46,045 nt of DNA, from NCBI GenBank assembly GCA_049699855.1, contig JBNAWM010000003.1:1-46045 (forward strand), in the 5' to 3' direction. This stretch comes from Candidatus Cryosericum sp. (GTDB lineage: Bacteria; Caldisericota; Caldisericia; Cryosericales; Cryosericaceae). Under the pieces are notes generated by a model. That model saw only the letters and a list, made by a program, of their open reading frames with translations, was not told the origin of the DNA and did not search any database. Made by a program: the position numbers and the translations under genes. Below, one piece after another: positions 1 to 40,258 of the stretch (position 1 is the first letter of the stretch; each line of letters opens with the position of its first letter).

Positions 1-524
1 TGGAAAGCGGCGAGGCGGGTACGGTAATACAGGCTGCGGTGCTGCATGACCTGGGTAAGGTCGGGCTCGATGAGGACTTGCTGCGCAAACCAGGACTGAG
101 CGTGGATGAGTTTCACCAGATCATGGGACACTCGGCAGTCTCCGCCAGCTTGCTGGAAGGGCTGACGCTGTTTCAGGGCGGTCGCGACATTGTTCTGCAC
201 CACCATGAGCGTTATGACGGGAAGGGATATCCGGATCACCTTGTTGGGGAGAACATCCCGCTTGGGGCCCGCATTATTGCGGTAGCCGATTCTTTTGATG
301 CTATGGTGAGTGTTCGCCCGTACCGTGCCAAAAGCCTGACCGTCACCGAGGCGTTGAAGATTCTCGACGACGAGCGTGGAGCGCAGTTCGATCCAGAGCT
401 GGTGACGATTTTCTCGAAGATCGTTCGAGCCCGCGTTGCAGCGGGTGACATGACCAACTTCCCGGCTGCCGTGCAAGTGGGTGCAAGCGAAGGCGTCGGC
501 GCCGTCGTGGGGGTTCAGCAATAA
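1..524 (+). CDS. HD-GYP domain phosphodiesterase (5' partial)
   Basis: LHDLGK, HHHERYDGKGYP and RIIAVADSFDAM..RPYR motifs; frame is open back to the window start. Confidence 0.9.
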   Translation, partial: ESGEAGTVIQAAVLHDLGKVGLDEDLLRKPGLSVDEFHQIMGHSAVSASLLEGLTLFQGGRDIVLHHHERYDGKGYPDHLVGENIPLGARIIAVADSFDAMVSVRPYRAKSLTVTEALKILDDERGAQFDPELVTIFSKIVRARVAAGDMTNFPAAVQVGASEGVGAVVGVQQ

Positions 525-525
525 C

Positions 526-1122
526 ATGTTTGTTCTTGCCGTATTGGCTGTTACGCTGATAGCCAGTCTGTTGACTGGTGGGCGCCTGCGTTACATAGAG
601 AACTTCCGCCTCAAGCTCCTGCCGCTCGGGACAGGGGCCTTTGTCCTTCAAGTCCTTATCTTCACTTCCCGGGGCGAATCATTGCTTGGTGCAACGCTGC
701 CTGGATTCTATGTCCTGAGCCTGGCGATGCTGGTCGGGTTTCTCGTCGCGAATCTGAAGGTCTTTGGTGTTCCACTTCTGCTGGTGGGGCTGCTGTTGAA
801 TGTTCTGGTCATCGGAGCGAACGGGGGGCGCATGCCAGCCAATCCCCAGGCACTTATCGCCGCAGGGCAGAGCTCCGCGGCCGAGCGATTGGTCAGGGAC
901 GGCCATGCAGCCAATGTCGTTCTCATGAGCAGCCAGACCCGGCTCAATGTTCTTGGAGACTACATTGTCCTGCCTCTGCTTGGCAACTTTGGTTCGGCAT
1001 ACAGCATTGGAGACCTTGTGGCGCTGGCCGGAGAAGCCGCCCTGGTTTTTGGAATGGTGCGAAGAGCTGAACCGGTGCCCGATGCACAGGCCAAGGACAG
1101 CAATTCCGGCAGCAAAGGATAG
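526..1122 (+). CDS. DUF5317-like integral membrane protein
   Basis: Hydrophobic protein with GGRL, NGGRMP, LGDYI and SIGD motifs; ATG 1 nt after the HD-GYP stop. Confidence 0.75.
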   Translation: MFVLAVLAVTLIASLLTGGRLRYIENFRLKLLPLGTGAFVLQVLIFTSRGESLLGATLPGFYVLSLAMLVGFLVANLKVFGVPLLLVGLLLNVLVIGANGGRMPANPQALIAAGQSSAAERLVRDGHAANVVLMSSQTRLNVLGDYIVLPLLGNFGSAYSIGDLVALAGEAALVFGMVRRAEPVPDAQAKDSNSGSKG

Positions 1123-1217
1123 TTGCGGTGGCCAGGTTTTCACGTCGGGTGTCTGATGTCTTCATCTGTTCGAGTGCGGCCGTGTCAAAGCGCGTCTGAT
1201 GACAAGTGAGGAACGCA

Positions 1218-2324
1218 ATGCGTGTGCATGAAGTCTATGAGTTGATCGACGCGGTGGCCCCCTTTCGGCTCCAGGAGTCCTATGACAATGCCGGCCTGAT
1301 CGTGGGTTCCATGGACGACGACGTGCGTGGAATCCTCCTCTGCCTTGACGTGACGAATGAGACTGTCGAGGAAGCAAGCCGGCTGGGTGCGAATCTGATT
1401 GTTTCTCACCACCCTCCCATTTTCAGGGCGATCAAGAGGCTGGATTCGGTCCAGCACTCGGCTCTGCTGGCAGCCGTCCGCATGGACATTGGACTGCTGG
1501 CAGCCCATACCAATTTCGATGCTGCGCCGCAGGGGCTGAACGCTTTCGTTGTTCAGGCGATGGGGCTCACTGATGTGCGCATCCTGGACGTACGTGAGTC
1601 AGAGCGCTTGTACAAGGTCGTCACGTTTGTGCCGCCCGAGTTCAGAGAGCAAGTCCTTGAAGCGGTGTTCAAGGCTGGAGCGGGCCACATCGGGGCATAC
1701 GCGGATACATCGTTTCGGACTGCAGGCACCGGTGCATTCCGCCCAGGACCGGGGACGCACCCTTTCATTGGTGAGGAAGACGTCCTTGCAAGCGTAGAAG
1801 AGGAGCGTGTTGAGACGATCGTCCCTGGGCGGCAGCTGGGACCTGCGCTCGAAGCGCTCCGGTCAGCCCATCCGTATGAAGAGCCTGCCATTGACGTTTT
1901 TGAGGAACACCTCCCTGGGGCGCCAGTCTCTGGTTTTGGGCATGTGGGAAGTCTGCCGAACCCCATGGATGCGCAGCAGTTTGTGGCGTTCATCAAGTTG
2001 TTCTTCTCTCTCAACGTCCTGCCGGTGGTGGGGACGCTCCCCTCCATGATCCAACGCGTTGCTTTCTGTTCGGGAGCAGGATCTTCACTGATCGCAGCGG
2101 CCAGCGCTGCGGGCGCTCAGGTGCTGATTACTGGTGACGTGACCTATCACACGGCGCTTGATGTATCGCAGGAAGGCAGCTGTATTGCGATCGTTGATCA
2201 CTACAGGTCTGAGCACTTTTTCGCAGCAGCGATGGAAGAGATACTGCGGAGTGTGGCAGGCGCCAGGGAGCTGCCTCCGTTGCACCAGTCGACGGTGGAC
2301 TACCAGCCAGTCAAGTTTTGGTAG
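1218..2324 (+). CDS. Nif3/YbgI-like dinuclear metal protein (GTP cyclohydrolase 1 type 2 homolog) with PII-like insert
   Basis: YDNAGL, VSHHPPIF, HTNFD, HPYEEPAID, TGDV.YH and DHYRSE motifs; GAGGA SD before ATG 1218. Confidence 0.9.
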   Translation: MRVHEVYELIDAVAPFRLQESYDNAGLIVGSMDDDVRGILLCLDVTNETVEEASRLGANLIVSHHPPIFRAIKRLDSVQHSALLAAVRMDIGLLAAHTNFDAAPQGLNAFVVQAMGLTDVRILDVRESERLYKVVTFVPPEFREQVLEAVFKAGAGHIGAYADTSFRTAGTGAFRPGPGTHPFIGEEDVLASVEEERVETIVPGRQLGPALEALRSAHPYEEPAIDVFEEHLPGAPVSGFGHVGSLPNPMDAQQFVAFIKLFFSLNVLPVVGTLPSMIQRVAFCSGAGSSLIAAASAAGAQVLITGDVTYHTALDVSQEGSCIAIVDHYRSEHFFAAAMEEILRSVAGARELPPLHQSTVDYQPVKFW

Positions 2325-2337
2325 GAAATCGCGGGTA

Positions 2338-2423
2338 CAACAGAAAACAGCCTGAAGCGCGATTGCGGTCCAGGCTGTTTCCGAAGGAGGGCATGTAACC
2401 GATAACAAAGTTACCGATTACAC
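2338..2423 (-). ncRNA. Candidate small regulatory RNA (5' hairpin, anti-SD seed, terminator)
   Basis: Downstream of TTGACA-N16-TATAGT; 13-bp hairpin (2394-2422) and 14-bp terminator stem (2343-2382) pair fully only on the minus strand, through G-U wobbles; unpaired UGCCCUCCUUC between them. Confidence 0.6.
2343..2382. terminator. Probable bidirectional intrinsic terminator
   Basis: AAACAGCCTG (2345-2354) / CAGGCTGTTT (2371-2380) perfect inverted repeat with A/T ends, just after the nif3 stop. Confidence 0.7.
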
Positions 2424-2427
2424 CGTC

Positions 2428-2455
2428 ACTATAGGAAGTATCTTCGCCGTGTCAA
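2428..2455 (-). promoter_or_regulatory. sigma70-type promoter TTGACA-N16-TATAGT
   Basis: Perfect -35 and 5/6 -10, pointing at the candidate sRNA. Confidence 0.7.
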
Positions 2456-2527
2456 TGGTCGTGTCTTCTCTTTGTTTACTGCGCGCGGCTGCGCAAGTCA
2501 GAGGCAGGTTTTAATGCAGCGGGCGCG

Positions 2528-2555
2528 TTGAACTGCCAGTGAAACGTGCTATGGT
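2528..2555 (+). promoter_or_regulatory. Putative alr promoter TTGAAC-N16-TATGGT (TGn extended -10)
   Basis: Ends 30 nt upstream of the alr ATG. Confidence 0.5.
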
Positions 2556-2585
2556 TTCTGTATGAAGAGCATCAGCAGGAGTGCG

Positions 2586-3752
2586 ATGGAGCAGTTTGGA
2601 CGTCCGACATGGCTCGAGATTGACCTGGCACGGATCCGGAACAACTATCATGTTGTCCAGAGGTTGGTTCCGGCAAAGACGCACATTGTCTGTGTGGTCA
2701 AGGATGATGCGTATGGACACGGCAGTATCCCTGTTGCAACTGCGCTTCAGGAAGAAGGCGCAGACTGGTTTGCCGTCGCGACGCTGGAAGAAGCTCTTGA
2801 ACTGCGCGAGGCAGGGATCACTGGAAGGATGCTGGTGCTGGGTTCTGTCCCTGCAGCCGGAGTTCTCGAGGCTGTCGCTCACGAGATCACCCTGACCATT
2901 CCGGACGAGGACACTGCCCGCCGGCTCTTGGAAGCAGCCCAGGGCAGGAAGCTGACGGTACACCTGAAGGTTGATACGGGGATGGGCAGAACCGGAGTGC
3001 TGGCTGAGGACGCGCTGGAGGTGCTCCATCACCTGAATGGGGCTAAGGGCTTGGTGGTTGAGGGCGTGTATTCGCACTTTTCCTGCGCCGACTCAGATGA
3101 ATCGTATTCGTCCATGCAACTGCGCCGGTTTGAAAAACTACTGCACAAGGCTACGGTCGAGGGAATCCGCCCGCCAATCGCGCACTTTTCGAACTCTGCC
3201 GGCATCCTCACGATGAACACGGCCATGCTGGATGCTGTGCGCCCTGGATTGCTGCTGTACGGCCTGTCCCCCATCGAGGGGGTTCCCATTGCGGGCCTGA
3301 GCCCTGCAATGTCGATGAAGACGCGCATTGTCTCGATGAAGCAGGTGCCGGCTGGATATGGCATTGGCTATGGACGCAGCTATCTGACGTACAAGACAAC
3401 GGTTGTTGGTCTTCTGCCGGTTGGCTATGCGGACGGGTATTCGCGCATGCTGTCCAACAAAGCCTCTGTTCTCCTCCATGGGAGGCGTGCGCCGGTGATT
3501 GGGAGAATCGGCATGGATCAGACGACGATTGACTTGTCTGACATTCCTGACGCGAGGGTGGGAGATGATGTCGTATTGATGGGTGAAGCAGGCAGCCAGC
3601 GCATCACGGGCGGCGACCTTGGTTCTCTTGCCCAGAGTATCAGCTATGAGATCCTGACGACGGTTGGAAAACTGGTGCGCCGCGAATACACAGACCACAG
3701 TGGCTTGGACGCCGCAGAGTCCCAGGAACATCCACAACCCGAACCACAATGA
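2586..3752 (+). CDS. alr: Alanine racemase
   Basis: RPTWLEID, VVKDDAYGHG (PLP lysine), HLKVDTGMGR, GYGRSY, PVGYADG, ISYEILT; AGGAG SD. Confidence 0.93.
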   Translation: MEQFGRPTWLEIDLARIRNNYHVVQRLVPAKTHIVCVVKDDAYGHGSIPVATALQEEGADWFAVATLEEALELREAGITGRMLVLGSVPAAGVLEAVAHEITLTIPDEDTARRLLEAAQGRKLTVHLKVDTGMGRTGVLAEDALEVLHHLNGAKGLVVEGVYSHFSCADSDESYSSMQLRRFEKLLHKATVEGIRPPIAHFSNSAGILTMNTAMLDAVRPGLLLYGLSPIEGVPIAGLSPAMSMKTRIVSMKQVPAGYGIGYGRSYLTYKTTVVGLLPVGYADGYSRMLSNKASVLLHGRRAPVIGRIGMDQTTIDLSDIPDARVGDDVVLMGEAGSQRITGGDLGSLAQSISYEILTTVGKLVRREYTDHSGLDAAESQEHPQPEPQ

Positions 3753-4576
3753 AGCACGATTCCAGGTACCATTCGATCCAGGCATCGCTGAAGAAGCTCC
3801 TTGCAGCCGTTCCATTTCCCTGCGCAGTACATGCCGAACTCCTGAGCGGTGAGGACCCGTGTGTCATCTACTCTCAGAATGCAAACCTTGTTTTTGGCGC
3901 GGCGTCAGTCATCAAACTTCCTCTCCTTGTGTGCGTAGAAGAACTGATCGAAACAGGCGCGCTGGCGTGGGATCAGCCCGTGGTGCTCACGGTGCCGGCG
4001 CCTCACGGTACGGGCCTTCTCGAGTTTCTTGACTGCAGTCGCCCGTGGACTATTCGAGACCTTAGTGTCTTGATGATGGGCACATCCGACAACATGGCCT
4101 GCAACCAGCTGCTGGAAGTGGTGGGAATGGCGCGGGCAAATGAGATCCTTCGTGTCCTGGGCTATACCGCTACTGTGGTTCGCAGGCGCATGATGGACCG
4201 GGAGAAACTGGCTCTGGGTGTTGACAACACGGTGACGGCGCTGGAGACGGCCGATATGCTCTCCAGGCTTCACGCTGGCCGTCTCATCTCGGCAGAAGCA
4301 AGTGCAGAGACTCTCAAATACCTGCGTATGAACCAGCTCAGGGACCTCACTGCCTGGCCGCTGCCGGGGAGCGTCGTGCTGGCAGGGAAGACCGGCGGGA
4401 TGCCCGGTTCGCTGCTGGATGCAGAACTCATCAGTATTCCGGGAGGGTCTACCTACTCCCTCTGCGTGTTTACCTCGGGGTTTGAGCGCGCGCTTCAGGC
4501 AAAGCGCCTTATCAGCGAGATTTCGGAACAGCTCTACGCCGCTGTTTCCGGAAGCGGGGGTGAGGGCTGCGACTGA
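3749..4576 (+). CDS. Serine hydrolase, class A beta-lactamase-like fold (no signal peptide)
   Basis: SVIK (SxxK), SDN and KTG motifs; ATGA overlap with the alr stop. Confidence 0.85.
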   Translation: MKHDSRYHSIQASLKKLLAAVPFPCAVHAELLSGEDPCVIYSQNANLVFGAASVIKLPLLVCVEELIETGALAWDQPVVLTVPAPHGTGLLEFLDCSRPWTIRDLSVLMMGTSDNMACNQLLEVVGMARANEILRVLGYTATVVRRRMMDREKLALGVDNTVTALETADMLSRLHAGRLISAEASAETLKYLRMNQLRDLTAWPLPGSVVLAGKTGGMPGSLLDAELISIPGGSTYSLCVFTSGFERALQAKRLISEISEQLYAAVSGSGGEGCD

Positions 4577-4602
4577 GCGTCGTTCCCTCCGCACTTGCAG
4601 AC

Positions 4603-5307
4603 CTAGATATTTCCACGGGCGCTGACAGAGAGCATGGGGTACCTGTGCTGCAGGGTCGTGGCAAGCTCATTCAGACTTCCTTGATCAAATCCTCTGGCTT
4701 GGAGGAAACGAGGGTCAAGGGTCTTTGACGGGACAAAATTCTGGAGGATATACCGCGAGCCCGAAGGAAGCATGGCTGCAACATCCATGATGTCCTCTTC
4801 GCCAAAAAGCATGGGCAGGACCGTTGTGCGGAACTCAGTGGCTACACCGGAATCAGCCAGCAGTTGGATCGACATTCTAGCGAGAGCAAGAGCTTCGGGG
4901 TTTGCAGTTACCTCGGCGTAGCGGGCAGGGGGAGCTTTGACATCCATTGCGACATAGTCAAGCAATCCTGCTTCCAGAAGAAGCCGAAGCATGTCTGGAT
5001 TTGAGCCGTTGGTGTCCAGCTTGACGGCAAAGCCAAGACGCCGCATGTGATCGATGAACTGTGGCAGATCTGCATGCAGAGTGGGTTCTCCCCCGGTGAT
5101 GCAAACACCGGTCAGCTTGCCCCTCCGCCTCCCGAGAAAAGTGAAAAAAGTCTCCTCAGTGAGACTGGGAGTCTCTGTGGTGACTGTGACCAGTTCGGGG
5201 TTGTGACAATAGGGACACCTGAAATTACAGCCGACGGTAAACACGGTCGCGGCTAGTTTCCCCGGAAAGTCGTTCAGCGAAAGTGGTTCATAGTGGGCAA
5301 GTCTCAT
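4603..5307 (-). CDS. nrdG: Anaerobic ribonucleotide reductase activating enzyme (radical SAM)
   Basis: SLNDFPGKLAATVFTVGCNFRCPYCHN (CxxxCxxC), ITGGEPT, KLDTNGS, YVAMDVKAP, EFRTT; GAGAGG SD. Confidence 0.9.
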   Translation of the reverse strand: MRLAHYEPLSLNDFPGKLAATVFTVGCNFRCPYCHNPELVTVTTETPSLTEETFFTFLGRRRGKLTGVCITGGEPTLHADLPQFIDHMRRLGFAVKLDTNGSNPDMLRLLLEAGLLDYVAMDVKAPPARYAEVTANPEALALARMSIQLLADSGVATEFRTTVLPMLFGEEDIMDVAAMLPSGSRYILQNFVPSKTLDPRFLQARGFDQGSLNELATTLQHRYPMLSVSARGNI

Positions 5308-5340
5308 GAGAGAACCTCTCGATTGCCAAGATGCGCCGTC

Positions 5341-5394
5341 AGAAACGAAAGACGCTCCTGGCGGGTCTGTCATGACCGGCGGCCAGAAGCGTCT
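5341..5394 (-). terminator. Intrinsic terminator-like hairpin between the small NrdD gene and nrdG
   Basis: Minus strand AGACGCTTCTGGC...GCCAGGAGCGTCT 13-bp stem (one G-U), inner GGTC/GACC stem, followed by TTCGTTTCT. Confidence 0.6.
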
Positions 5395-5406
5395 CCTCTA
5401 TCGGGA

Positions 5407-5604
5407 TTATTGTGCAGAGCTGTGTTCTTTTCTTGCTTCGAATGTCCTTCTCTCGGACCACTCAGCTTTCTTTCCCTTGTTCCACTGTGCTACCGGTCTC
5501 AGATAGCCAACCACCCGGCTGTAGACTTCTGTTTTTGTACGCCGGCTGGCGGGCACGACCGTCCCGTTCTCCAAGAGAAGATCTCCATTTTCAAGTTCTC
5601 TCAC
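5407..5604 (-). CDS. nrdD: Stand-alone glycyl-radical domain of class III RNR (NrdD C-terminal fragment, 65 aa)
   Basis: TEVYSRVVGYLRPVAQWNKGKKAEWSER matches the NrdD C-terminal glycyl-radical signature; GTG start with GAGGAGGTGA SD. Confidence 0.9.
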   Translation of the reverse strand: MRELENGDLLLENGTVVPASRRTKTEVYSRVVGYLRPVAQWNKGKKAEWSERRTFEARKEHSSAQ

Positions 5605-5628
5605 GTATCACCTCCTCGTCATAACTCA

Positions 5629-5637
5629 ATTATACCA
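5629..5637 (-). promoter_or_regulatory. Extended -10 element TGGTATAAT
   Basis: Perfect TGnTATAAT 24 nt upstream of the small nrdD gene start. Confidence 0.55.
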
Positions 5638-5644
5638 CAAAATG

Positions 5645-7090
5645 TCAATTGGATAGCGTGACACTTCCTGTTGCGACGAACGCTGAAGTCCCTGATGGAA
5701 GAAGGATCTGAACGACGCGCCCCTCTGCCGTCATATTGATGGCAACAACACTGTCTCCTTTGGAGAGACTGGTTGAAGCCAGTTGCGTCAAACCTGCATC
5801 CAAGTAGACCTTGACGGTCGCAGGCGCGCTTACCCTGGCAAACGGAAGATAGGTCGAATTCCCACGCGTGATCTGGGCATAGGCGCCATAGACCCATCCT
5901 GTCTTTCCTTTGGCCTGTCCCAGTCCTTTTGCCTGGATCCATCCCTGGCCCAGTGCAAGAGCGGTGCGTTTCTCGGTGGGTGCGGCCACCTCGAGGACGG
6001 TACTGCCAATCGTGACTGGCTGGTCGCGGAACATCAGTCCGGTTTCAGTTGTCAGTATCGGCGCAGACTGTTTGCCAGCCGCTACCGGCGCGCTGTCCCC
6101 GGTGAACTGATATGCGAACATCGAAGGAGAGCTGCCCTTCACGACAAGTCGCGGTTTGCTTGAGCCCTCCACGTACTGCCATGTCTCGTAGGTGAGCGGA
6201 GCAGTCTTGCCATCGGCGCCCGTTCCTGAACCATAAATGCCGAGCTCGTACACGATCGTTTTACCATCCATCGAACGGGAGGCTCCGCGCACAAAGGGCT
6301 GAAGGATGCTGCTTGAGGTCGGTGGTGGCGTGATGCTGGTGATCTTGCCGTCCTGTGTCTTGATTCCAAGGAAAGAACCCTTCGTGTCCTGCATGATGCC
6401 AAAGAAGGTGCCATCGGCAAATGTCACGCCTGACGGGCCAAGGAACGTGTGGGCAGTGTCGAACCCCAGGCTCGATGTTCCTACTGTCCAGATACCTCCG
6501 GGCGAGACGACGAGGGGAGTGGATCCGTCCAGGATCAACCGCGTTGTTCGATCGAACTGTTCTTTGGTGATGGGAACTTGGGTCCAGAATGAGCTGTTGG
6601 TCGTGCCATCATATCCGAGGGACGTCACGGTCAGCTGCAGCAGTCGCGTGACGGTCGTTGGTGCAGCCTGTACAAGTAGAACGCCATCAGACGTGCACAG
6701 GAGCTTCGGCGCCATCTCAGCTTTTCCCTGTACACTGACCAGTTCCTGCTTGGATGTCATCTTGTGATCCACGAGCTTGAACGACCCGTCCGCTTCGCTG
6801 GTCATGTAGACAATTTCGCCGCCTGCGGGATGCCAGTCAAATGCGGATACTGTGCCCAGCTTGGTGAGTTGTGTCTTGCGCCCGTTTACCCATTGCCAGA
6901 GGTCGCCTTTGTCAAGGTAGATACCTATGTCATTCTTGGTGGGTTTGGTCGAGGTTCCTGTTCCCGGGGACTGCGCTGTTGACTTCGAACCTATGGAGCG
7001 CAGTACAAAAAATAAGGAAACGGCTATGACCACTACAGCAATGGCAAGGATGACGATTCTCTTCTTTGGACGTCGACGAAATCCACTCAT
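5645..7090 (-). CDS. Hypothetical N-terminally anchored exported protein (beta-rich, possibly propeller-like)
   Basis: Basic N-terminus plus one TM helix, then a S/T/G-rich beta-strand sequence; AGGAGG SD overlaps the nrdD stop. Confidence 0.75.
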   Translation of the reverse strand: MSGFRRRPKKRIVILAIAVVVIAVSLFFVLRSIGSKSTAQSPGTGTSTKPTKNDIGIYLDKGDLWQWVNGRKTQLTKLGTVSAFDWHPAGGEIVYMTSEADGSFKLVDHKMTSKQELVSVQGKAEMAPKLLCTSDGVLLVQAAPTTVTRLLQLTVTSLGYDGTTNSSFWTQVPITKEQFDRTTRLILDGSTPLVVSPGGIWTVGTSSLGFDTAHTFLGPSGVTFADGTFFGIMQDTKGSFLGIKTQDGKITSITPPPTSSSILQPFVRGASRSMDGKTIVYELGIYGSGTGADGKTAPLTYETWQYVEGSSKPRLVVKGSSPSMFAYQFTGDSAPVAAGKQSAPILTTETGLMFRDQPVTIGSTVLEVAAPTEKRTALALGQGWIQAKGLGQAKGKTGWVYGAYAQITRGNSTYLPFARVSAPATVKVYLDAGLTQLASTSLSKGDSVVAINMTAEGRVVQILLPSGTSAFVATGSVTLSN

Positions 7091-7104: not shown

Positions 7105-9156
7105 CTACCTTTCACGGCCGGTCGCGAACGGGATGTCCTTCGAGACAGGATGAGCGGCAGAATTTTGTGCCTCAGCAATCAGTTCTTCATCGCAAAGAGG
7201 GCAGAACGGGTGATTTCCGGCGATATACCCGTGTTTCGGGCAGATAGAGAACGTCGGCGTCAACGTGAAATAAGGAAGCCTGTAGCTACTTGTCACGGCT
7301 TGCACCAGCTGCTTTGCCTGGTCTGCACTCTCCAGCCGTTCGCCAAGGAAGAGGTGGAGCACGGTGCCCCCTGTGTACTTTGTCTGGATGGGATCCTGAA
7401 GATCAAGGGCTTCAAACGCATCGGTCGTATAGCCGACTGGCAACTGAGTTGAGTTGGTGTAGTATGGATCGGCACCGTCCCTGAACGCTCCCTCGTTTGC
7501 GACGAGAATGTCCGGGTAGAGCGCCTTGTCCTGCTTTGCGAGGACGTAGGTCGCCGACTCGGCCGGACTCGCTTCGAGATTGTAGAGCTGGCCGCTCTCA
7601 TGCTGGAACTGCTCCAGTCTGCTCAGCATGAAGTCCATGATCTCAAGGGCGAGCTGCTGTCCTTCGGGATCGGCAATCGTGACGCCTGCAAAGTTCAGCA
7701 GCAGCTCATTCATGCCATTGATGCCTATGGTGTTGAAATGGTTTGCCCAATACGTCCCGTTGCGCTCCTTGACACCGTCAAGGTAGTGACGCGAATAGGG
7801 ATAGAGGCCAGCCGCCGTAAGATTTTCAATGATTTTTCGCTTGATTTCCAGCGACGTTCGGGCGACATCCATGACATGGGAGAGACGTTCAAGCAATTCA
7901 CCTTTGCTGCGAGAGAGATAACCGATTCGTGGGAGGTCGATGGTGACAACGCCGATCGATCCAGTGAGCGGGTTTGCCGCGAACAGTCCGCCACCCCTCT
8001 TCTGCAATTCACGCGTGTCGAGCCGGAGGCGGCAGCACATGGAACGCGTGTCGTCCGGACTCATGTCGCTGTTCACGAAGTTGCTCCAATATGGAATGCC
8101 GAACTTGGCTGTCATCTCGAAGATGGGGTCATAGACGGGATTCGCCCAGTCAAAGTCTCTCGTGATGTTGTAGGTGGGGATGGGGAACGAAAAGACCCGT
8201 CCTTTTGAGTCACCTGCCAGCATGACCTCTGCAAAGGCTCTGTTGAACATGTCCATCTCGGGCTGGAATTCGGCGTATGTTTCGTCGATGGGCTGACCTC
8301 CAATGATCGCCTGTTCGCCTGCTGTGGCACCATGTGGTTTCAAGTCCAGCGTGATGTTGCTGAAGGGGGACTGGAATCCCGAGCGCGTTGGAACATTCAT
8401 GTTGAAGACAAACTCCTGAACAGCTTGCTTCACCTCATCATAGCGCAAGTGATCGTTGCGGATGAAGGGTGCGAGGTAGGTGTCGACGGAACTGAACGCC
8501 TGTGCTCCGGCTGCTTCACCCTGCATGGTGAAGATGAAGTTGACCATCTGCCCCAGGGCTGATCGGAAATGCTTGGCGGGTTTGCTCTCGACCTTGCCAT
8601 AGACGCCACCCAGTCCCCTGAGAAGGAGATCCTTGAGATCCCAGCCCACACAGTAGGCAGCCAGGTAGCCCAGGTCATGAATGTAGAGATCACCGCCCAC
8701 GTGCGCATCGCGAACCTCGGGGGGATACACCTCATTCAGCCAGTACCGGCTGACGACGCTGGTGGCCAGGTGCATGTTCAACCCTTGAAGGGAGTAACTG
8801 GTGTTGGAGTTCTCATTGACACGCCAGTCGAGTTTCTCCAGGTACTTCTGGATGGTTTCGCGCGGGTCAAGAAGCGTCTTCAGGTCACGCAGTTTGCGAT
8901 GCTGCTCGCGGTACAGGATGTACGCTTTGGCAGTCTTGTGATGGCGTGACTCCATGAGCGTCTGCTCAACCAGGTCCTGTATCTGCTCAACGGTCGCAAT
9001 GTCATCAGGAATCTGGGCAACAATGATGCGTGTGAGGCGGTCGGCCTCGGCTTCGTCGAACTCCTTTGTAGCTTTGCCTGCTTTCGCAATGGCTGCATGG
9101 ATTTTCGCCGGGTCAAACTCCACCTTCTCGCCTGTGCGCTTGATTACATATCGCAT
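7105..9156 (-). CDS. nrdD: Anaerobic (class III) ribonucleoside-triphosphate reductase, large fragment with ATP-cone, lacking the glycyl-radical loop
   Basis: VIKRTG ATP-cone, YIHDL, YCVGW, SMCCRL, TGSIGVVTI, YNLEASPAE, YTNST, YTGGTV and C-terminal CPKH...CPLC; no RVxGY motif. Confidence 0.93.
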   Translation of the reverse strand: MRYVIKRTGEKVEFDPAKIHAAIAKAGKATKEFDEAEADRLTRIIVAQIPDDIATVEQIQDLVEQTLMESRHHKTAKAYILYREQHRKLRDLKTLLDPRETIQKYLEKLDWRVNENSNTSYSLQGLNMHLATSVVSRYWLNEVYPPEVRDAHVGGDLYIHDLGYLAAYCVGWDLKDLLLRGLGGVYGKVESKPAKHFRSALGQMVNFIFTMQGEAAGAQAFSSVDTYLAPFIRNDHLRYDEVKQAVQEFVFNMNVPTRSGFQSPFSNITLDLKPHGATAGEQAIIGGQPIDETYAEFQPEMDMFNRAFAEVMLAGDSKGRVFSFPIPTYNITRDFDWANPVYDPIFEMTAKFGIPYWSNFVNSDMSPDDTRSMCCRLRLDTRELQKRGGGLFAANPLTGSIGVVTIDLPRIGYLSRSKGELLERLSHVMDVARTSLEIKRKIIENLTAAGLYPYSRHYLDGVKERNGTYWANHFNTIGINGMNELLLNFAGVTIADPEGQQLALEIMDFMLSRLEQFQHESGQLYNLEASPAESATYVLAKQDKALYPDILVANEGAFRDGADPYYTNSTQLPVGYTTDAFEALDLQDPIQTKYTGGTVLHLFLGERLESADQAKQLVQAVTSSYRLPYFTLTPTFSICPKHGYIAGNHPFCPLCDEELIAEAQNSAAHPVSKDIPFATGRER

Positions 9157-18974: not shown

Positions 18975-19814
18975 ATGATACGAGTTGTCATGGATACCAC
19001 TACCGGCATGACCAGGGCGGAGTTTGAACAGGCTGACATTACCATGGTCCCACTCTATGTCCGGGATGGAGAAAAGCTCTATCGCGAGCAGGTCGATATT
19101 TTTCCTCAGGAGTTCTATCGACGTGAACGGGAGGGGACTCTCTTCGAAACGGCGCAGACAAATCCGGCCGACCTGATCTCTGTGTTCAAGCCAATCCTTG
19201 AGGCAGGCGATGAAATCGTATGTGTGCTCATTTCAAGCGCGATTTCTGGATCGGTCAATGCAGCGCACCTCGCAGCCCAGACCCTTGGAGCCGAAGACAA
19301 GATCACGATTGTCGATTCGCTGGAATCGGGTTATGGAGAGGCATACCTTGGCCTTACGGCAAAGAAAATGGCCCAGGCCGGAGAGAGCCGAGCCGCAATT
19401 GTTCAAACGCTGGCCGACATCCGCAAGCGAACTCGGACGTATTTCATCATGGAATCGTTGAAATGGCTGTTCCATGGAGGACGCCTGACAGGGGCTCAGT
19501 ACTTTGTGGGATCGGTTGTCAAACTGAACCCCATTGTCTGGTTCGATGAGGCGGGACGCATGACGTCTTATGACAAGACTCGGACCCTCAAAGTAGCAAA
19601 GACGCGCATGCGTCAGCTCGTCGCAGAAGCCGGAAAGAATGGCGTCGAAGCGGCAACACTTCATTGGCCGGACAACCTGGACGAGGCACAGGAGTTTCAC
19701 GATGAAATGGAGCAAATCCTCCAGGTGCCTGTCTCGTACACCAAGCTCTCATGTGTGCTTGGTGTGCATACAGGCCCCGACCTGCTTGGGCCGTGCGTCA
19801 TTATGAAGGCATGA
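18975..19814 (+). CDS. DegV/FakB family fatty-acid-binding protein
   Basis: MIRVVMDTT, TAQTNP, ISSAISGS, VDS, GGRL and GVHTGP motifs; GGAGGTGA SD. Confidence 0.9.
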   Translation: MIRVVMDTTTGMTRAEFEQADITMVPLYVRDGEKLYREQVDIFPQEFYRREREGTLFETAQTNPADLISVFKPILEAGDEIVCVLISSAISGSVNAAHLAAQTLGAEDKITIVDSLESGYGEAYLGLTAKKMAQAGESRAAIVQTLADIRKRTRTYFIMESLKWLFHGGRLTGAQYFVGSVVKLNPIVWFDEAGRMTSYDKTRTLKVAKTRMRQLVAEAGKNGVEAATLHWPDNLDEAQEFHDEMEQILQVPVSYTKLSCVLGVHTGPDLLGPCVIMKA

Positions 19815-19944
19815 AGCGGGCTTCGCGTCCAAAAGGTCAGTTGCTTTGCAGGCAACAGCGTCGCATCGAGCAATGAGTTGCATTCCAGGTCCAGTCACTG
19901 CCTGGTGATCGGCGGCCGCCAAGCGCGCCCCGGAAAGGAATCCT

Positions 19945-20811
19945 ATGATCAAAGTAGTCATGGACTCGACCTGCGGCATGACCGTAGAGGACTTTGATAA
20001 AGCTGGCATCATCATGGTTCCCCTCTATATTCGCCAGGGGGAGACGCTTTACCGCGACGGAGTGGATATCAAGCCAGCTGAGTTCTACCGGAAGGAACGC
20101 GAGGGCGTTATCTTTGAGAGTGCACAGACAAATCCTGATGACCTGGTCCGTATCTTCAGGCCGATCATAGAAGCAGGCGATGAGGTTGTCTGTGTCATGA
20201 TTTCTGGAGCGATTTCGGGCTCTGTCAATGCGGCTCACGTCGCAGCAGCCACGCTGGGAGCCGAGGACCGGATTTCGATCGTCGACTCGCGACAGAGTGG
20301 GTACTGTCAGCTCAACATGGGCAGACTGGCCAAGAAGATGGCGGACGAGGGGAAAGACCGCGCAGAAATTGTCCAGGCGCTGGGCGATTTGCGGGATCGC
20401 ACGTGGGTCTACTTCATCATGGAATCGTTGCATTGGCTGTACAAGGGTGGCCGCCTCACTGGAGCGCAAGCTCTCATCGGCACGATCATCCAGCTCAAGC
20501 CGATCGTCTGGTTCGACGATGAGGGGCGTATGGTAACCCATGACAAAATACGGACCATCAAAGCCGGCAAGGAACGCCTCAAGGAGCTGGTGATGGAAAT
20601 GGCTTCGTATGGAGTTGAGTCAGCAGGGCTCCACTGGGCCGACAATTGGGATGAGGCTAAGGAATTCGGGGACTGGATGGAATCGGTTCTTCACGTGCCG
20701 GTGGAGTATAACAGGGTGTCATGTGTCGTGGGATGCCATGTGGGGCCTACGGTCCTTGGTCCAGTTGTTGTGATGAAAGAGAAGCCGAAGTCGAAGAGTC
20801 GCGCAGGCTGA
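19945..20811 (+). CDS. DegV/FakB family protein
   Basis: Close paralog of 18975; MIKVVMDST, ISGAISGS, GCHVGP. Confidence 0.9.
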   Translation: MIKVVMDSTCGMTVEDFDKAGIIMVPLYIRQGETLYRDGVDIKPAEFYRKEREGVIFESAQTNPDDLVRIFRPIIEAGDEVVCVMISGAISGSVNAAHVAAATLGAEDRISIVDSRQSGYCQLNMGRLAKKMADEGKDRAEIVQALGDLRDRTWVYFIMESLHWLYKGGRLTGAQALIGTIIQLKPIVWFDDEGRMVTHDKIRTIKAGKERLKELVMEMASYGVESAGLHWADNWDEAKEFGDWMESVLHVPVEYNRVSCVVGCHVGPTVLGPVVVMKEKPKSKSRAG

Positions 20812-34694: not shown

Positions 34695-34796
34695 CCTGAA
34701 GGGCGGCATCTGTGGCATGAAGAACCGCATCAAACTACAGGTGCCGTTTCCGATAAACTGAGTACAGATGTGAGACATGTGACAAGGAGGCAAGAC

Positions 34797-36676: not shown

Positions 36677-37519
36677 ATGGCTCTTCAGATTGTAACGGAT
36701 TCTACAAGTTGCTTGCCGGATGGTTTTGCAGAACAGCATCATCTACCGGTTGTTCCGCTCAAGGTATCGGTCGACGGGGTTTTCTATCGCGAGTTTGAGG
36801 AGATATCTCCTGACGCGTTCTATGCGAAGGAGAAAGCGGGAGCGAAAGTCGGTACGACACAGCCTGCCCCCGAGGACTTCATCGCTGTGTACTCACGAAT
36901 TCTGGCTGATCCTGAGGGCGAGGTATTGAGCATTCACCTCTCCGCTGCGATGAGCGGAACACTGAACAGCGCCTATATTGCTGCTGAACAGACTGATCCG
37001 GGGCGCGTGCACTTCTATGATGTGCGCACGATCGGGCCAGGCTTTGGTCTCATGGTCATGAATGCCGTCAAGATGGCAGAGAAGGGCGCAAGTGTTCATG
37101 ATGTGACAGCCATGCTCGATGAGATGCAAGCGCGCACGCATATCTACTTTCTTGTTGGTACCATGAAGTATCTCATCGAGGGTGGACGCGTCGGAAAGGC
37201 GGCGGGTGTGGCCGCAAGCATCCTGCAGATCAAGCCGATTCTCACTGTGCGAGATGGCATTGTGGATGTCTACGAACGCCCGCGCACGATGCGTGCAGCG
37301 CGGGATCGTCTGTGTGCTGTTGTGGATCAGGCGGTCGTACGGGGAATCGAACACATAGGGTTTCACTATACCGCGAACAGGGCTGAGGTGGAGGCCATGC
37401 AATCAGAATTTACGCGGCGAACGGGCATTCCTTCTGCTCTCGGTCAGCTGGGACCTGTCGTTGGGTGTCACACTGGCCCAGAGACGCTGGGAATCGTGAT
37501 CGTGGAACGGGCATCCTGA
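36677..37519 (+). CDS. DegV/FakB family protein
   Basis: IVTDST, TTQP, HLSAAMSGT, GGRVG, IKPIL, GCHTGP. Confidence 0.92.
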   Translation: MALQIVTDSTSCLPDGFAEQHHLPVVPLKVSVDGVFYREFEEISPDAFYAKEKAGAKVGTTQPAPEDFIAVYSRILADPEGEVLSIHLSAAMSGTLNSAYIAAEQTDPGRVHFYDVRTIGPGFGLMVMNAVKMAEKGASVHDVTAMLDEMQARTHIYFLVGTMKYLIEGGRVGKAAGVAASILQIKPILTVRDGIVDVYERPRTMRAARDRLCAVVDQAVVRGIEHIGFHYTANRAEVEAMQSEFTRRTGIPSALGQLGPVVGCHTGPETLGIVIVERAS

Positions 37520-37582
37520 GCCTATGGATTGTCGGAGATTGAGGCCGTTCGGGAAGAGCGCGATAGGCGGGGACAGCGGCCA

Positions 37583-39331
37583 GTGAGCGTCCATATCGTC
37601 ACTGACTCAACCAGTTATCTTACGCCTGGCGCGGTCAGCGAGGGCGAACTGGCTGTCGTTCCGGTCAAAGTTTCGCTCAATGAAGTCTTCTACCGCGAGT
37701 TCTCCGAGATTTCGCCCGACGAGTTTTACGCACAGCAGGCAGCCGGAGCAAAGTACACGACAACGCAACCAAGCCCTGAAGACTTCATGGGAGTGTATGC
37801 GAGGTTGACGGAGGATCCCCAGGATCAAGTCTTGAGCATTCACTTGTCGTCCAAGGTGAGTGGAACCCTCAACAGCGCGTATCTTGCCGCTCAGCAGATC
37901 GATCCAGGGCGCATTCATCTGTATGATTCATTGACGTCCGGGTTGGGGTTGGGATTCATGGTCATGGAAGCAGTCAGACTTGCGACCGACGGGATGAATA
38001 TCAACGGCATTGTCAAAGCCCTGGACGCCATGCGCGAACGAATCCACATTTACTTCCTTCTCGGCACGACGAAGTATCTTGTCAAGAGCGGGCGGATCAA
38101 CAAGGCAATCGGGGTCGCTGCCAACATCCTGCAGATCAAGCCGATTCTGACCGTGCGCAATGGGCTGATCGAAATGTATGACAAGCCGCGCACCATGGGC
38201 GTGGCGCTGGAGAGATTGAGGGCTCTTGTTGCGGAGGCGGTTGCCAAGGGTGTTGACCGCGTCGGTTTTCACTATGTCAGCGACAGGCTGCCGGTGGAGA
38301 GGATGCAGAGGGAGCTGATGGCGACCGCCGGAATTCCATCGGTGATCACGCAGCTGGGACCGGGCGTGGGCTGCCACATGGGGCCCGAGACAGTAGCGGT
38401 CGTGCTCCTGGACCGGGCGATTGAGCAGAAGGCGGAACCTCAGCCTGCAGCAAGCAGCAGCGGAGATCAGACGAGAGAGGGGTCACACATGCTCATCCAT
38501 ATCGTAACCGATTCGACCAGCTATCTGCCTGAGGGGTTTGCCACTCAGCATGGTATTGACATCGTTCCGCTCAAGATTACGGTCGATGGGGTCCTGCATC
38601 GCGAGTTTGTCGACATCGATTCGGACCAGTTTTATCAGAGGCAGAGCGCAGGAGCGAAGGCTGTGACCTCTCAGCCGGGGCCGGAGGACTTCGTGGCTCT
38701 CTACAAGAGGCTGCTGGCAAGCTCAGATGATGAGGTCCTTGGCGTTCATATTTCCAGCCTGATGAGCGGAACCCTCAACAGCGCGAATGCCGCGGCGGCG
38801 ATCGCAGGAACCCAGAGAGTGAGACTTTATGACAGCAAAATGGCTGGACTGGGATTGGGATTCATGGTGATGGAAGCAGTTCGGCTGGCCGAAGAGGGTG
38901 CGTCGGCAAGTGAGATTGTGGCAGCCCTCGATGCAATGCAGGCGCGCATTCACGTCTATTTCCTGGTTGGGACTCTCGATTACCTGGTAGCAGGAGCTCG
39001 CATCGGCAAAGCGGCAGGGGTCGCAGGCAGCATCCTGCAGATCAAGCCGATCCTCACTATCAAGGATGGTCTCATTGATGTATATGACAGACCAAGGACC
39101 ATGCGGGTTGCAAGGGATCGCATCTGGAAGCTGATTGATGAAGCGGCGGCGCGAGGCATTGAGCAGATAGGATTTCACTATGCCGGGAACAAGGCAGAAG
39201 TGGAGGCTCTTCAGCAGGACTTCGAACGCCGGACCGGAATGCCATCGCTGCTCAGTCAGCTGGGACCAGTCGTCGGGGGAAACACAGGGCCCGATACGCT
39301 GGGCGTTGTGATTGTGGAGAAAGCCAGATAA
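37583..39331 (+). CDS. Tandem double-DegV fusion (second unit begins at ATG 38489)
   Basis: Two complete DegV units (HIVTDSTSYL twice) in one ORF with a ~20-aa linker; start at GTG 37583 inferred from paralogs. Confidence 0.85.
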   Translation: MSVHIVTDSTSYLTPGAVSEGELAVVPVKVSLNEVFYREFSEISPDEFYAQQAAGAKYTTTQPSPEDFMGVYARLTEDPQDQVLSIHLSSKVSGTLNSAYLAAQQIDPGRIHLYDSLTSGLGLGFMVMEAVRLATDGMNINGIVKALDAMRERIHIYFLLGTTKYLVKSGRINKAIGVAANILQIKPILTVRNGLIEMYDKPRTMGVALERLRALVAEAVAKGVDRVGFHYVSDRLPVERMQRELMATAGIPSVITQLGPGVGCHMGPETVAVVLLDRAIEQKAEPQPAASSSGDQTREGSHMLIHIVTDSTSYLPEGFATQHGIDIVPLKITVDGVLHREFVDIDSDQFYQRQSAGAKAVTSQPGPEDFVALYKRLLASSDDEVLGVHISSLMSGTLNSANAAAAIAGTQRVRLYDSKMAGLGLGFMVMEAVRLAEEGASASEIVAALDAMQARIHVYFLVGTLDYLVAGARIGKAAGVAGSILQIKPILTIKDGLIDVYDRPRTMRVARDRIWKLIDEAAARGIEQIGFHYAGNKAEVEALQQDFERRTGMPSLLSQLGPVVGGNTGPDTLGVVIVEKAR

Positions 39332-39409
39332 AATAGGACAGGTCCGGGTTTGCCCCGGCGATTGCTGAGAGAAGGGCAGTCGCGAAGACAGCCGGAGAGG
39401 GAGTAGACA

Positions 39410-40258
39410 ATGGCAATCCATATTGTTACCGATAGCACGGCCGCTCTTCCAGATGGGTATGCCGGCCAGCACGGCGTAACCGTTGTTCCACTCAAGGTAT
39501 CGCTGGACGGGGAGTACTTCCGGGACGGAATCGACATTTCCAACGATGAGTTTTATCGGCGTTTGGTGGCCGGTTCAAAGGCGGGCAGCACTCAGCCATC
39601 GCCCGAAGAGTTTGCTTCAGCGTATCGTGCCATCCTGGAAAAGGACCCCGAAGGCGACATTGTCTCAATCCACATCAGTTCGCGGATGTCGGGCACGCTC
39701 AATGCAGCTCTGACGGGACGCAATCAGCTGGACACAATCCATGTCCGCTTTGTGGACACTTGGAATGCAGCACTTGGTGTGGGGTTTCCCGTGATGCGGG
39801 CCGTGGAACTTGCTGAAACGGGGGCACCCCTGTGGCAGGTGATGGCCGAGGTGGAGGCACTGTGCCTGAGAACGCATACATACTTTGTCCTTGACTCTCT
39901 CACCTACCTGGAGAGAGGCGGACGCATTGCGAAAGCCGCCGCAATCGCTGCCAGCATCTTGAAAATCAAGCCAGTGCTGACGTATATAGAAGGCGTGGTT
40001 GATGTGGTCGACCGCCCCCGGACCAAGAAAGTGGCGCTGGAGCATCTTTGGGCGATTATTGAGAAGCACGTGCAGAAAGGTATCGAGTACGTGGGCTTCC
40101 AGTATGGCTCAAATCTCGCCGAGGTCGAGGAGTTTCAGCGTGCGTTCACGTCCAGATTCAACCTTCCGAGCATCCTGACCCAGCTCGGTCCGGTCGTGGG
40201 CACATACTCGGGACCTGACATGATAGGCGTTGTCATTGTCGAGAAGAAGGCAGCTTAG
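39410..40258 (+). CDS. DegV/FakB family protein
   Basis: IHIVTDST, STQPSP, HISSRMSGT, GGRI, IKPVL. Confidence 0.92.
   Translation: MAIHIVTDSTAALPDGYAGQHGVTVVPLKVSLDGEYFRDGIDISNDEFYRRLVAGSKAGSTQPSPEEFASAYRAILEKDPEGDIVSIHISSRMSGTLNAALTGRNQLDTIHVRFVDTWNAALGVGFPVMRAVELAETGAPLWQVMAEVEALCLRTHTYFVLDSLTYLERGGRIAKAAAIAASILKIKPVLTYIEGVVDVVDRPRTKKVALEHLWAIIEKHVQKGIEYVGFQYGSNLAEVEEFQRAFTSRFNLPSILTQLGPVVGTYSGPDMIGVVIVEKKAA

Follow-up and report, generated by a model that had tools for sequence, protein, structure and literature searches.

The 237-nt gap between the end of nif3 (position 2324) and the start of alr (2562) raises the question of what is transcribed there and to what effect. The gap lies in a 46,045-nt stretch of DNA from Candidatus Cryosericum sp. 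(genome G000), which is called the window here. An earlier note had placed in the gap an unannotated minus-strand sRNA gene of about 85 nt with an exposed anti-Shine-Dalgarno (anti-SD) seed. Conservation, covariation and a sibling that shares only the seed give good support to such a stand-alone gene, while its length was refined to about 81–83 nt, with +1 at G2421. Judged by sequence, the element (element 1) is one of a real pair of predicted sRNA genes, siblings 1 and 2, which are conserved, restricted to the uncultured genus Cryosericum and form a family previously unlisted in Rfam. The features of the locus are as follows:

1206–2324, plus strand: nif3 (DUF34), convergent with sibling 1; TIGR00486 above cut-off; adjoins the element in 20 of 20 loci.
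2339–2421, minus strand: predicted sRNA of sibling 1, its +1 (G2421) 7 nt past the -10 box.
2339–2382, minus strand: 3' terminator hairpin and U-tract; compensatory changes in 4 of 17 pairs; short T runs on both sides.
2383–2395, minus strand: seed CAUGCCCUCCUUC, anti-start codon plus anti-SD; identical in sibling 2.
2394–2422, minus strand: 5' hairpin of 13 bp (12 if +1 is G2421); 97% of cells paired.
2428–2433, minus strand: -10 box TATAGT; 98% column conservation vs 76% in the spacer.
2450–2455, minus strand: -35 box TTGACA (promoter scan); unchanged in all 22 aligned loci (20 genomes).
2456–2469, minus strand: position of a LacI-type palindrome, occupied in relatives; the palindrome is absent in this genome.
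2562–3752, plus strand: alr (alanine racemase), divergent from sibling 1; TIGR00492 above cut-off; synteny in 20 of 20 loci.

The TTGACA-N16-TATAGT motif described in the earlier note is indeed found on the minus strand, at 2455–2450 and 2433–2428. In a promoter scan it matched 11 of 12 consensus positions with a 16-nt spacer and was the sole site within positions 1–6000; as shuffled sequence yields 2.0 sites at the scan's looser threshold, the promoter match by itself is weak proof. Transcription is predicted to run from G2421 to the U-tract. The fold claimed for this RNA, a 13-bp hairpin (2422–2394), a single-stranded linker and a 14-bp stem ending in UUUUCU, was borne out by the sequence and by folding; the terminator stem spans 2382–2343 and is capped by a C-C mismatch followed by a 3-bp stem with a 4-nt loop. 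As had been stated, all four non-Watson-Crick pairs are of the G-U type when read on the minus strand; the folding z-score of 2336–2421 was -8.96 on the minus vs -3.49 on the plus strand. Between the two stem-loops the seed is exposed: in each sibling RNA, 11 of 12 positions are unpaired with a probability of 0.97 or more. The layout is that of the csRNAs, two stem-loops with an unpaired anti-SD/anti-AUG region between them, and the anti-AUG and anti-SD stretches are nearly adjacent within the 12-nt linker.

A DNA search detected element 1 in 19 of the 22 other genus genomes and in none of 18 genomes of other families. The covariance model R1 scored 82–111 bits in 20 of 23 genus genomes, the three genomes without the element being 61–87% complete, and matched none of 61 other genomes of the class. 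Majority conservation per region, computed over 22 loci from 20 genomes, was 100% for the -35 box, 76% for the spacer, 98% for the -10 box, 68% between the -10 box and +1, 95% for the RNA and 74% upstream. Conservation of element 1 thus begins at the predicted +1, and in both siblings it is confined to the -35 box, the -10 box and the RNA; the Nif3 proteins flanking element 1 are just 63–79% identical. Covariation across related genomes was found: two-sided changes occur at 5 of 30 pairs, four of them in the terminator (17 distinct sequences), and the covariation score was reached by none of 500 shuffles, a control that is inflated by the relatedness of the sequences. In the 5' hairpin one-sided variation that retains pairing is seen at 3 of 13 pairs, and the single two-sided change is the terminal pair of a decayed copy. 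Across relatives, non-Watson-Crick cells comprise 45 G-U, 8 A-C and 6 others. The compensatory and G-U changes in the stems favour a minus-strand RNA.

Two genomes, G014 and G003, carry both an altered sibling 1 seed and a -10 box changed to TGTAGT; the other 18 of 20 keep both. As the two stand on separate, well-supported branches, the joint change of seed and -10 box suggests two independent decays of one functional unit.

The locus might instead hold only cis elements, namely a bidirectional terminator for nif3 and a DNA operator or promoter region for alr. Hairpin 2 does have T runs on both sides and lies 18 nt past the nif3 stop codon, so that it may also terminate the convergent nif3 transcript, and hairpin 1 is a palindrome at the DNA level. 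Nevertheless, the conserved minus-strand promoter has nothing else to transcribe, the bias to G-U speaks for one RNA strand, an unrelated locus has the core again between different hairpins, and alr has a separate promoter-like site (2528–2555, plus strand). The palindrome pattern of hairpin 1 was found solely at this locus in the genome, and on that ground hairpin 1 was also rejected as a LacI-type operator. A purely cis-acting role is therefore very unlikely.

The second sibling lies on another contig (G000:C24:6893-6956) and was picked up as a weak second match of model R1. It has its own promoter, TTGACA-18-TATAAT; its 5' hairpin (9 bp) and its GC-rich terminator both differ from those of sibling 1, and it is flanked by the gene of a DEAD-box helicase and a convergent gene for pirin. 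Its RNA is predicted to begin at C24 position 6894 and to measure 67 nt. The exposed core AUGCCCUCCUUC is identical and equally placed in both siblings, the identity spanning 13–15 nt, while both hairpins differ. The 13-mer of the seed occurs exactly twice in the 1.63-Mb genome, each time behind a promoter. Genome-wide, 136 strong promoter-like sites were counted. In 12 of them a terminator follows within 130 nt, and the two most stable of these terminators are those of the siblings. Sibling 2 is present in 18 of 23 genus genomes, is 99% conserved and, as sibling 1, starts with a G 7 nt past the -10 box. It also matched 35 metagenome stretches, and the 33 that reach the promoter show it on inspection by eye. 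Taken alone, sibling 2 gave no significant covariation: with its 5 distinct sequences, the score was reached by 55 of 500 shuffles. At the sequence level the pair thus has what is expected of trans-acting sibling sRNAs: promoter, terminator, no coding frame and a seed-sharing paralogue.

No third sibling emerged from 13 weak matches that were read; none had the core and most were ordinary terminators. Likewise, 29 core-pattern matches inspected of about 100 listed contained no sRNA gene. The corrected sibling 2 model, R3, gave four weak matches (E 0.02–0.09) in 70 other genomes of the phylum, namely in G038, G088, G087:C177 and G090:C22. The first two were inspected: that in G038 is a repeated gene-end terminator and that in G088 a terminator-like hairpin without the core. 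No convincing homologue of the siblings was found in the 70 genomes. In G038, which belongs to another family, this terminator hairpin is repeated about ten times after genes (L254, L305-L316).

Known RNAs offered no ready identity. A search of Rfam gave no matches in the window (best score 16.9 bits vs a cut-off of 55) and, with a best score of 16.7 vs 39 for sibling 2, no family above its gathering cut-off at either locus. A housekeeping RNA was rejected, as SRP RNA, 6S RNA, RNase P RNA and tmRNA were all found elsewhere in the genome. Neither Hfq nor CsrA had a match in this genome, which is 97.9% complete, and the fold of neither sibling contains repeated GGA loops; a sponge of the CsrB/RsmZ type was rejected for lack of a CsrA match and of such loops.

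The siblings could also be type I antitoxins, a class to which the earlier note had likened such seeds, or mRNAs of small peptides. The antisense strand of both carries an SD and an ATG (window 2384–2399, plus strand; opposite G000:C24:6894-6960), and a 27-aa ATG ORF begins within element 1, contrary to the initial statement that no ORF lies downstream of the promoter. The ORF has no SD, passes through the terminator and varies from 27 to 81 aa across relatives. On the antisense strand the ATG is followed by an immediate stop in both siblings (TAA, TGA), and no toxin ORF lies opposite either copy. The neighbours, nif3 and alr or the helicase and pirin genes, are housekeeping genes, and no exact match of either sibling was found in viral contigs. 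We regard this reading as highly improbable.

Anti-SD seeds are familiar from several sRNAs, and the C-rich seeds of RsaE/RoxS and LhrC are aimed at ribosome-binding sites rich in G. As a class, sibling sRNAs are paralogues with a common seed (excerpts of PMC4211561). Neither for this class nor for RsaE/RoxS and LhrC does any Rfam family reach threshold at either Cryosericum locus. The streptococcal, cia-dependent csRNAs occur as several related sRNAs per genome, with two stem-loops and an unpaired region, complementary to SD and AUG, that is their most similar part (excerpts of PMC3091779 and PMC4507080); in these respects they resemble the pair described here. In contrast to the csRNAs, which are under CiaR control, the Cryosericum pair is predicted to answer to a LacI-family repressor, has no Rfam match, belongs to another phylum and has its anti-AUG and anti-SD stretches nearly adjacent. 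In Neisseria, NmsR-A and NmsR-B are likewise two siblings in which exposed, conserved, UC-rich anti-SD stretches repress translation of metabolic genes; as far as excerpts of PMC5362039 describe them, the NmsRs have three stem-loops, two anti-SD motifs and a host with Hfq, whereas the Cryosericum RNAs have one seed, separate loci and no Hfq match. The pair most likely works like the csRNAs or NmsRs without being a member of either group.

A possible regulator was suggested by the DNA next to the promoters. In 14 of 20 genomes the -35 box of sibling 1 directly adjoins a 14-bp palindrome of the LacI type, with at most one mismatch. At sibling 2 the palindrome overlaps the -35 box, as seen in 14 of the 16 loci that were parsed (G021 and G022 left out). 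Of 24 loci of the dcd-lacI-ribokinase-BMP operon 16 were usable (seven without dcd and one other were left out), and 15 of these have the palindrome upstream, as compared with 0.3% of 3000 random windows, though this occurrence is only partly independent because the pattern was built from these same sites. LacI proteins bind such palindromes and often autoregulate. A LacI protein is encoded in 19 of 23 genus genomes, mostly one in each, and is closest to RbsR models, yet below all cut-offs, that of CcpA included. The palindrome sites appear to outline a small LacI regulon. In most species, an RbsR-like regulator of the LacI family would repress both sRNA promoters, and both RNAs would rise in the presence of its effector, likely ribose or a nucleoside.

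In the present genome the repressor and the lacI operator are kept and the palindrome is absent at both sRNA promoters; its sister G014 has neither a LacI match nor palindrome sites. Together with the decay of seed and promoter in two lineages, the absence of the operator from both sRNA promoters in these two sister genomes lets loss and rewiring of the sRNAs be compared in nature. The lacI operon of G000 (G000:C12:17584-21124, L230) begins with the dCTP deaminase gene, followed by lacI, a ribokinase-like gene and a BMP lipoprotein gene, and has the operator over its promoter. The palindrome also occurs upstream of an operon of MarR and a metallo-beta-lactamase-fold protein (ODP) in several relatives and upstream of a BMP ABC operon in G008 (MarR/ODP and BMP loci L204, L207, L208, L221, L224, L228 and L223).

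Candidate targets were scored by seed pairing with start regions that a home-made gene caller had delimited. In this genome many start regions showed such pairing; since an anti-SD seed pairs with many mRNAs, targets are poorly resolved. The AAGGAGG at 34784–34790, which the earlier note had offered as a possible target, is present and the gene, rbr, encodes a rubrerythrin, but at rank 347 of 1532 it did not stand out. Orthologues (about 800 kb from six relatives) covered 262 of 1487 genes, and among these 262 radA ranked first. Of 21 genus genomes, 12 have an exact 11-nt seed complement in the radA start region and 15 have one of 9 nt, this genome having 9 nt; five of five outgroup genomes have none. 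The AUG matched may be the start codon itself. The site is missing in 6 of 21 genus genomes, including G008, G015, G021 and G022, whose seed is intact. SD spacers are generally identical at 5 of 5 positions in 19 of 107 orthologue pairs and at 4 or more of 5 in 44, so that the conservation at radA is not exceptional, and a 12-nt match turned up among 356 start regions of a genome that lacks these RNAs. As the leading candidate target, radA is a lead and suggestive only. Good pairing of glnA (3 of 6 sequences) and of an ftsX-like gene was limited to some genomes, and this one was not among them.

The core stays invariant even where the radA site is absent, which would fit RNAs that imitate the 3' end of 16S rRNA (helix 45 plus the anti-SD tail), either diverting a 3'-end factor as decoys or competing broadly with the ribosome for SD sequences. 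In both siblings AU, two bases and CCUCCUU come after a similarly sized 5' hairpin, in a register that matches the 16S tail of the genus. Moreover, a G after GGAGG is scarce in the start regions of seven of seven Cryosericum sets (ratio 0.27–0.47, about threefold scarcer than in the spacer). The same scarcity is seen, however, in two of six outgroup sets without the RNAs (G040 and G032; pooled Fisher p = 0.067). Avoidance of the seed's best SD across the genome looked specific with three outgroups and no longer clearly so with six. CCUCCUU is common to 16S rRNA and any anti-SD RNA, the bases between AU and CCUCC differ, and the hairpins are unlike helix 45 of the genus; a likeness of hairpin 1 to the helix 45 of another organism did not hold for the 16S rRNA of this genus. 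Such mimicry is quite improbable. Were 16S 3'-end mimics switched on by a repressor that senses a sugar or nucleoside, which we think equally doubtful, they would form a global RNA rheostat of translation or a trap for a 3'-end factor.

The invariant core and the terminator loop could also serve protein binding instead of pairing, and the RNAs, though real, might titrate an RNA-binding protein such as a KH protein or sponge another RNA. The core identity of 13–15 nt exceeds the SD-complementary part, the 13-nt core has no complement elsewhere in the genome, and a KH protein of the KhpA/B type is encoded. The missing CsrA match and the lack of repeated motifs in the RNA argue against titration, as does the complementarity of the core to SD plus AUG, a property shared with the csRNAs in excerpts of PMC3091779. 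We consider this reading unlikely.

The best explanation, and a likely one, is that the twin predicted sRNAs repress translation through their shared exposed core. Each RNA would be transcribed from its own promoter up to its terminator, and the core would pair, independently of Hfq, with the SD and start-codon regions of several mRNAs; blocked ribosome-binding sites would leave these mRNAs repressed. The action we infer is trans-acting translation blocking. The class of mechanism is familiar; the family is new. In the literature searched no sRNA is described for Cryosericum or its phylum (the supplements of large RNA-motif surveys were outside the search, and a prior listing there is possible), and the phylum would gain a defined family, a predicted regulator and a testable target. 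If true, the csRNA/NmsR design of siblings with an exposed anti-SD seed arose again in a deep-branching lineage without Hfq, wired to a LacI-family repressor.

Some further observations concern the genes around the element. The promoter-like site of alr reads TTGAAC-16-TATGGT with a TG extension, and its predicted +1 falls on the A of the ATG at 2562 (2528–2564, plus strand); as this spacing is kept in relatives, judged by eye, alr may be leaderless. Five plus-strand genes in two clusters (18975–20811 and 36677–40258) have similar N-termini and presumably resemble DegV-type fatty-acid-binding proteins. A 65-aa ORF on the minus strand (5407–5604), which we take to resemble a C-terminal piece of an anaerobic ribonucleotide reductase, lies between an activase-like gene, presumably of the radical-SAM type, and a larger, presumably reductase-like gene (7105–9156), with an unrelated gene intervening.
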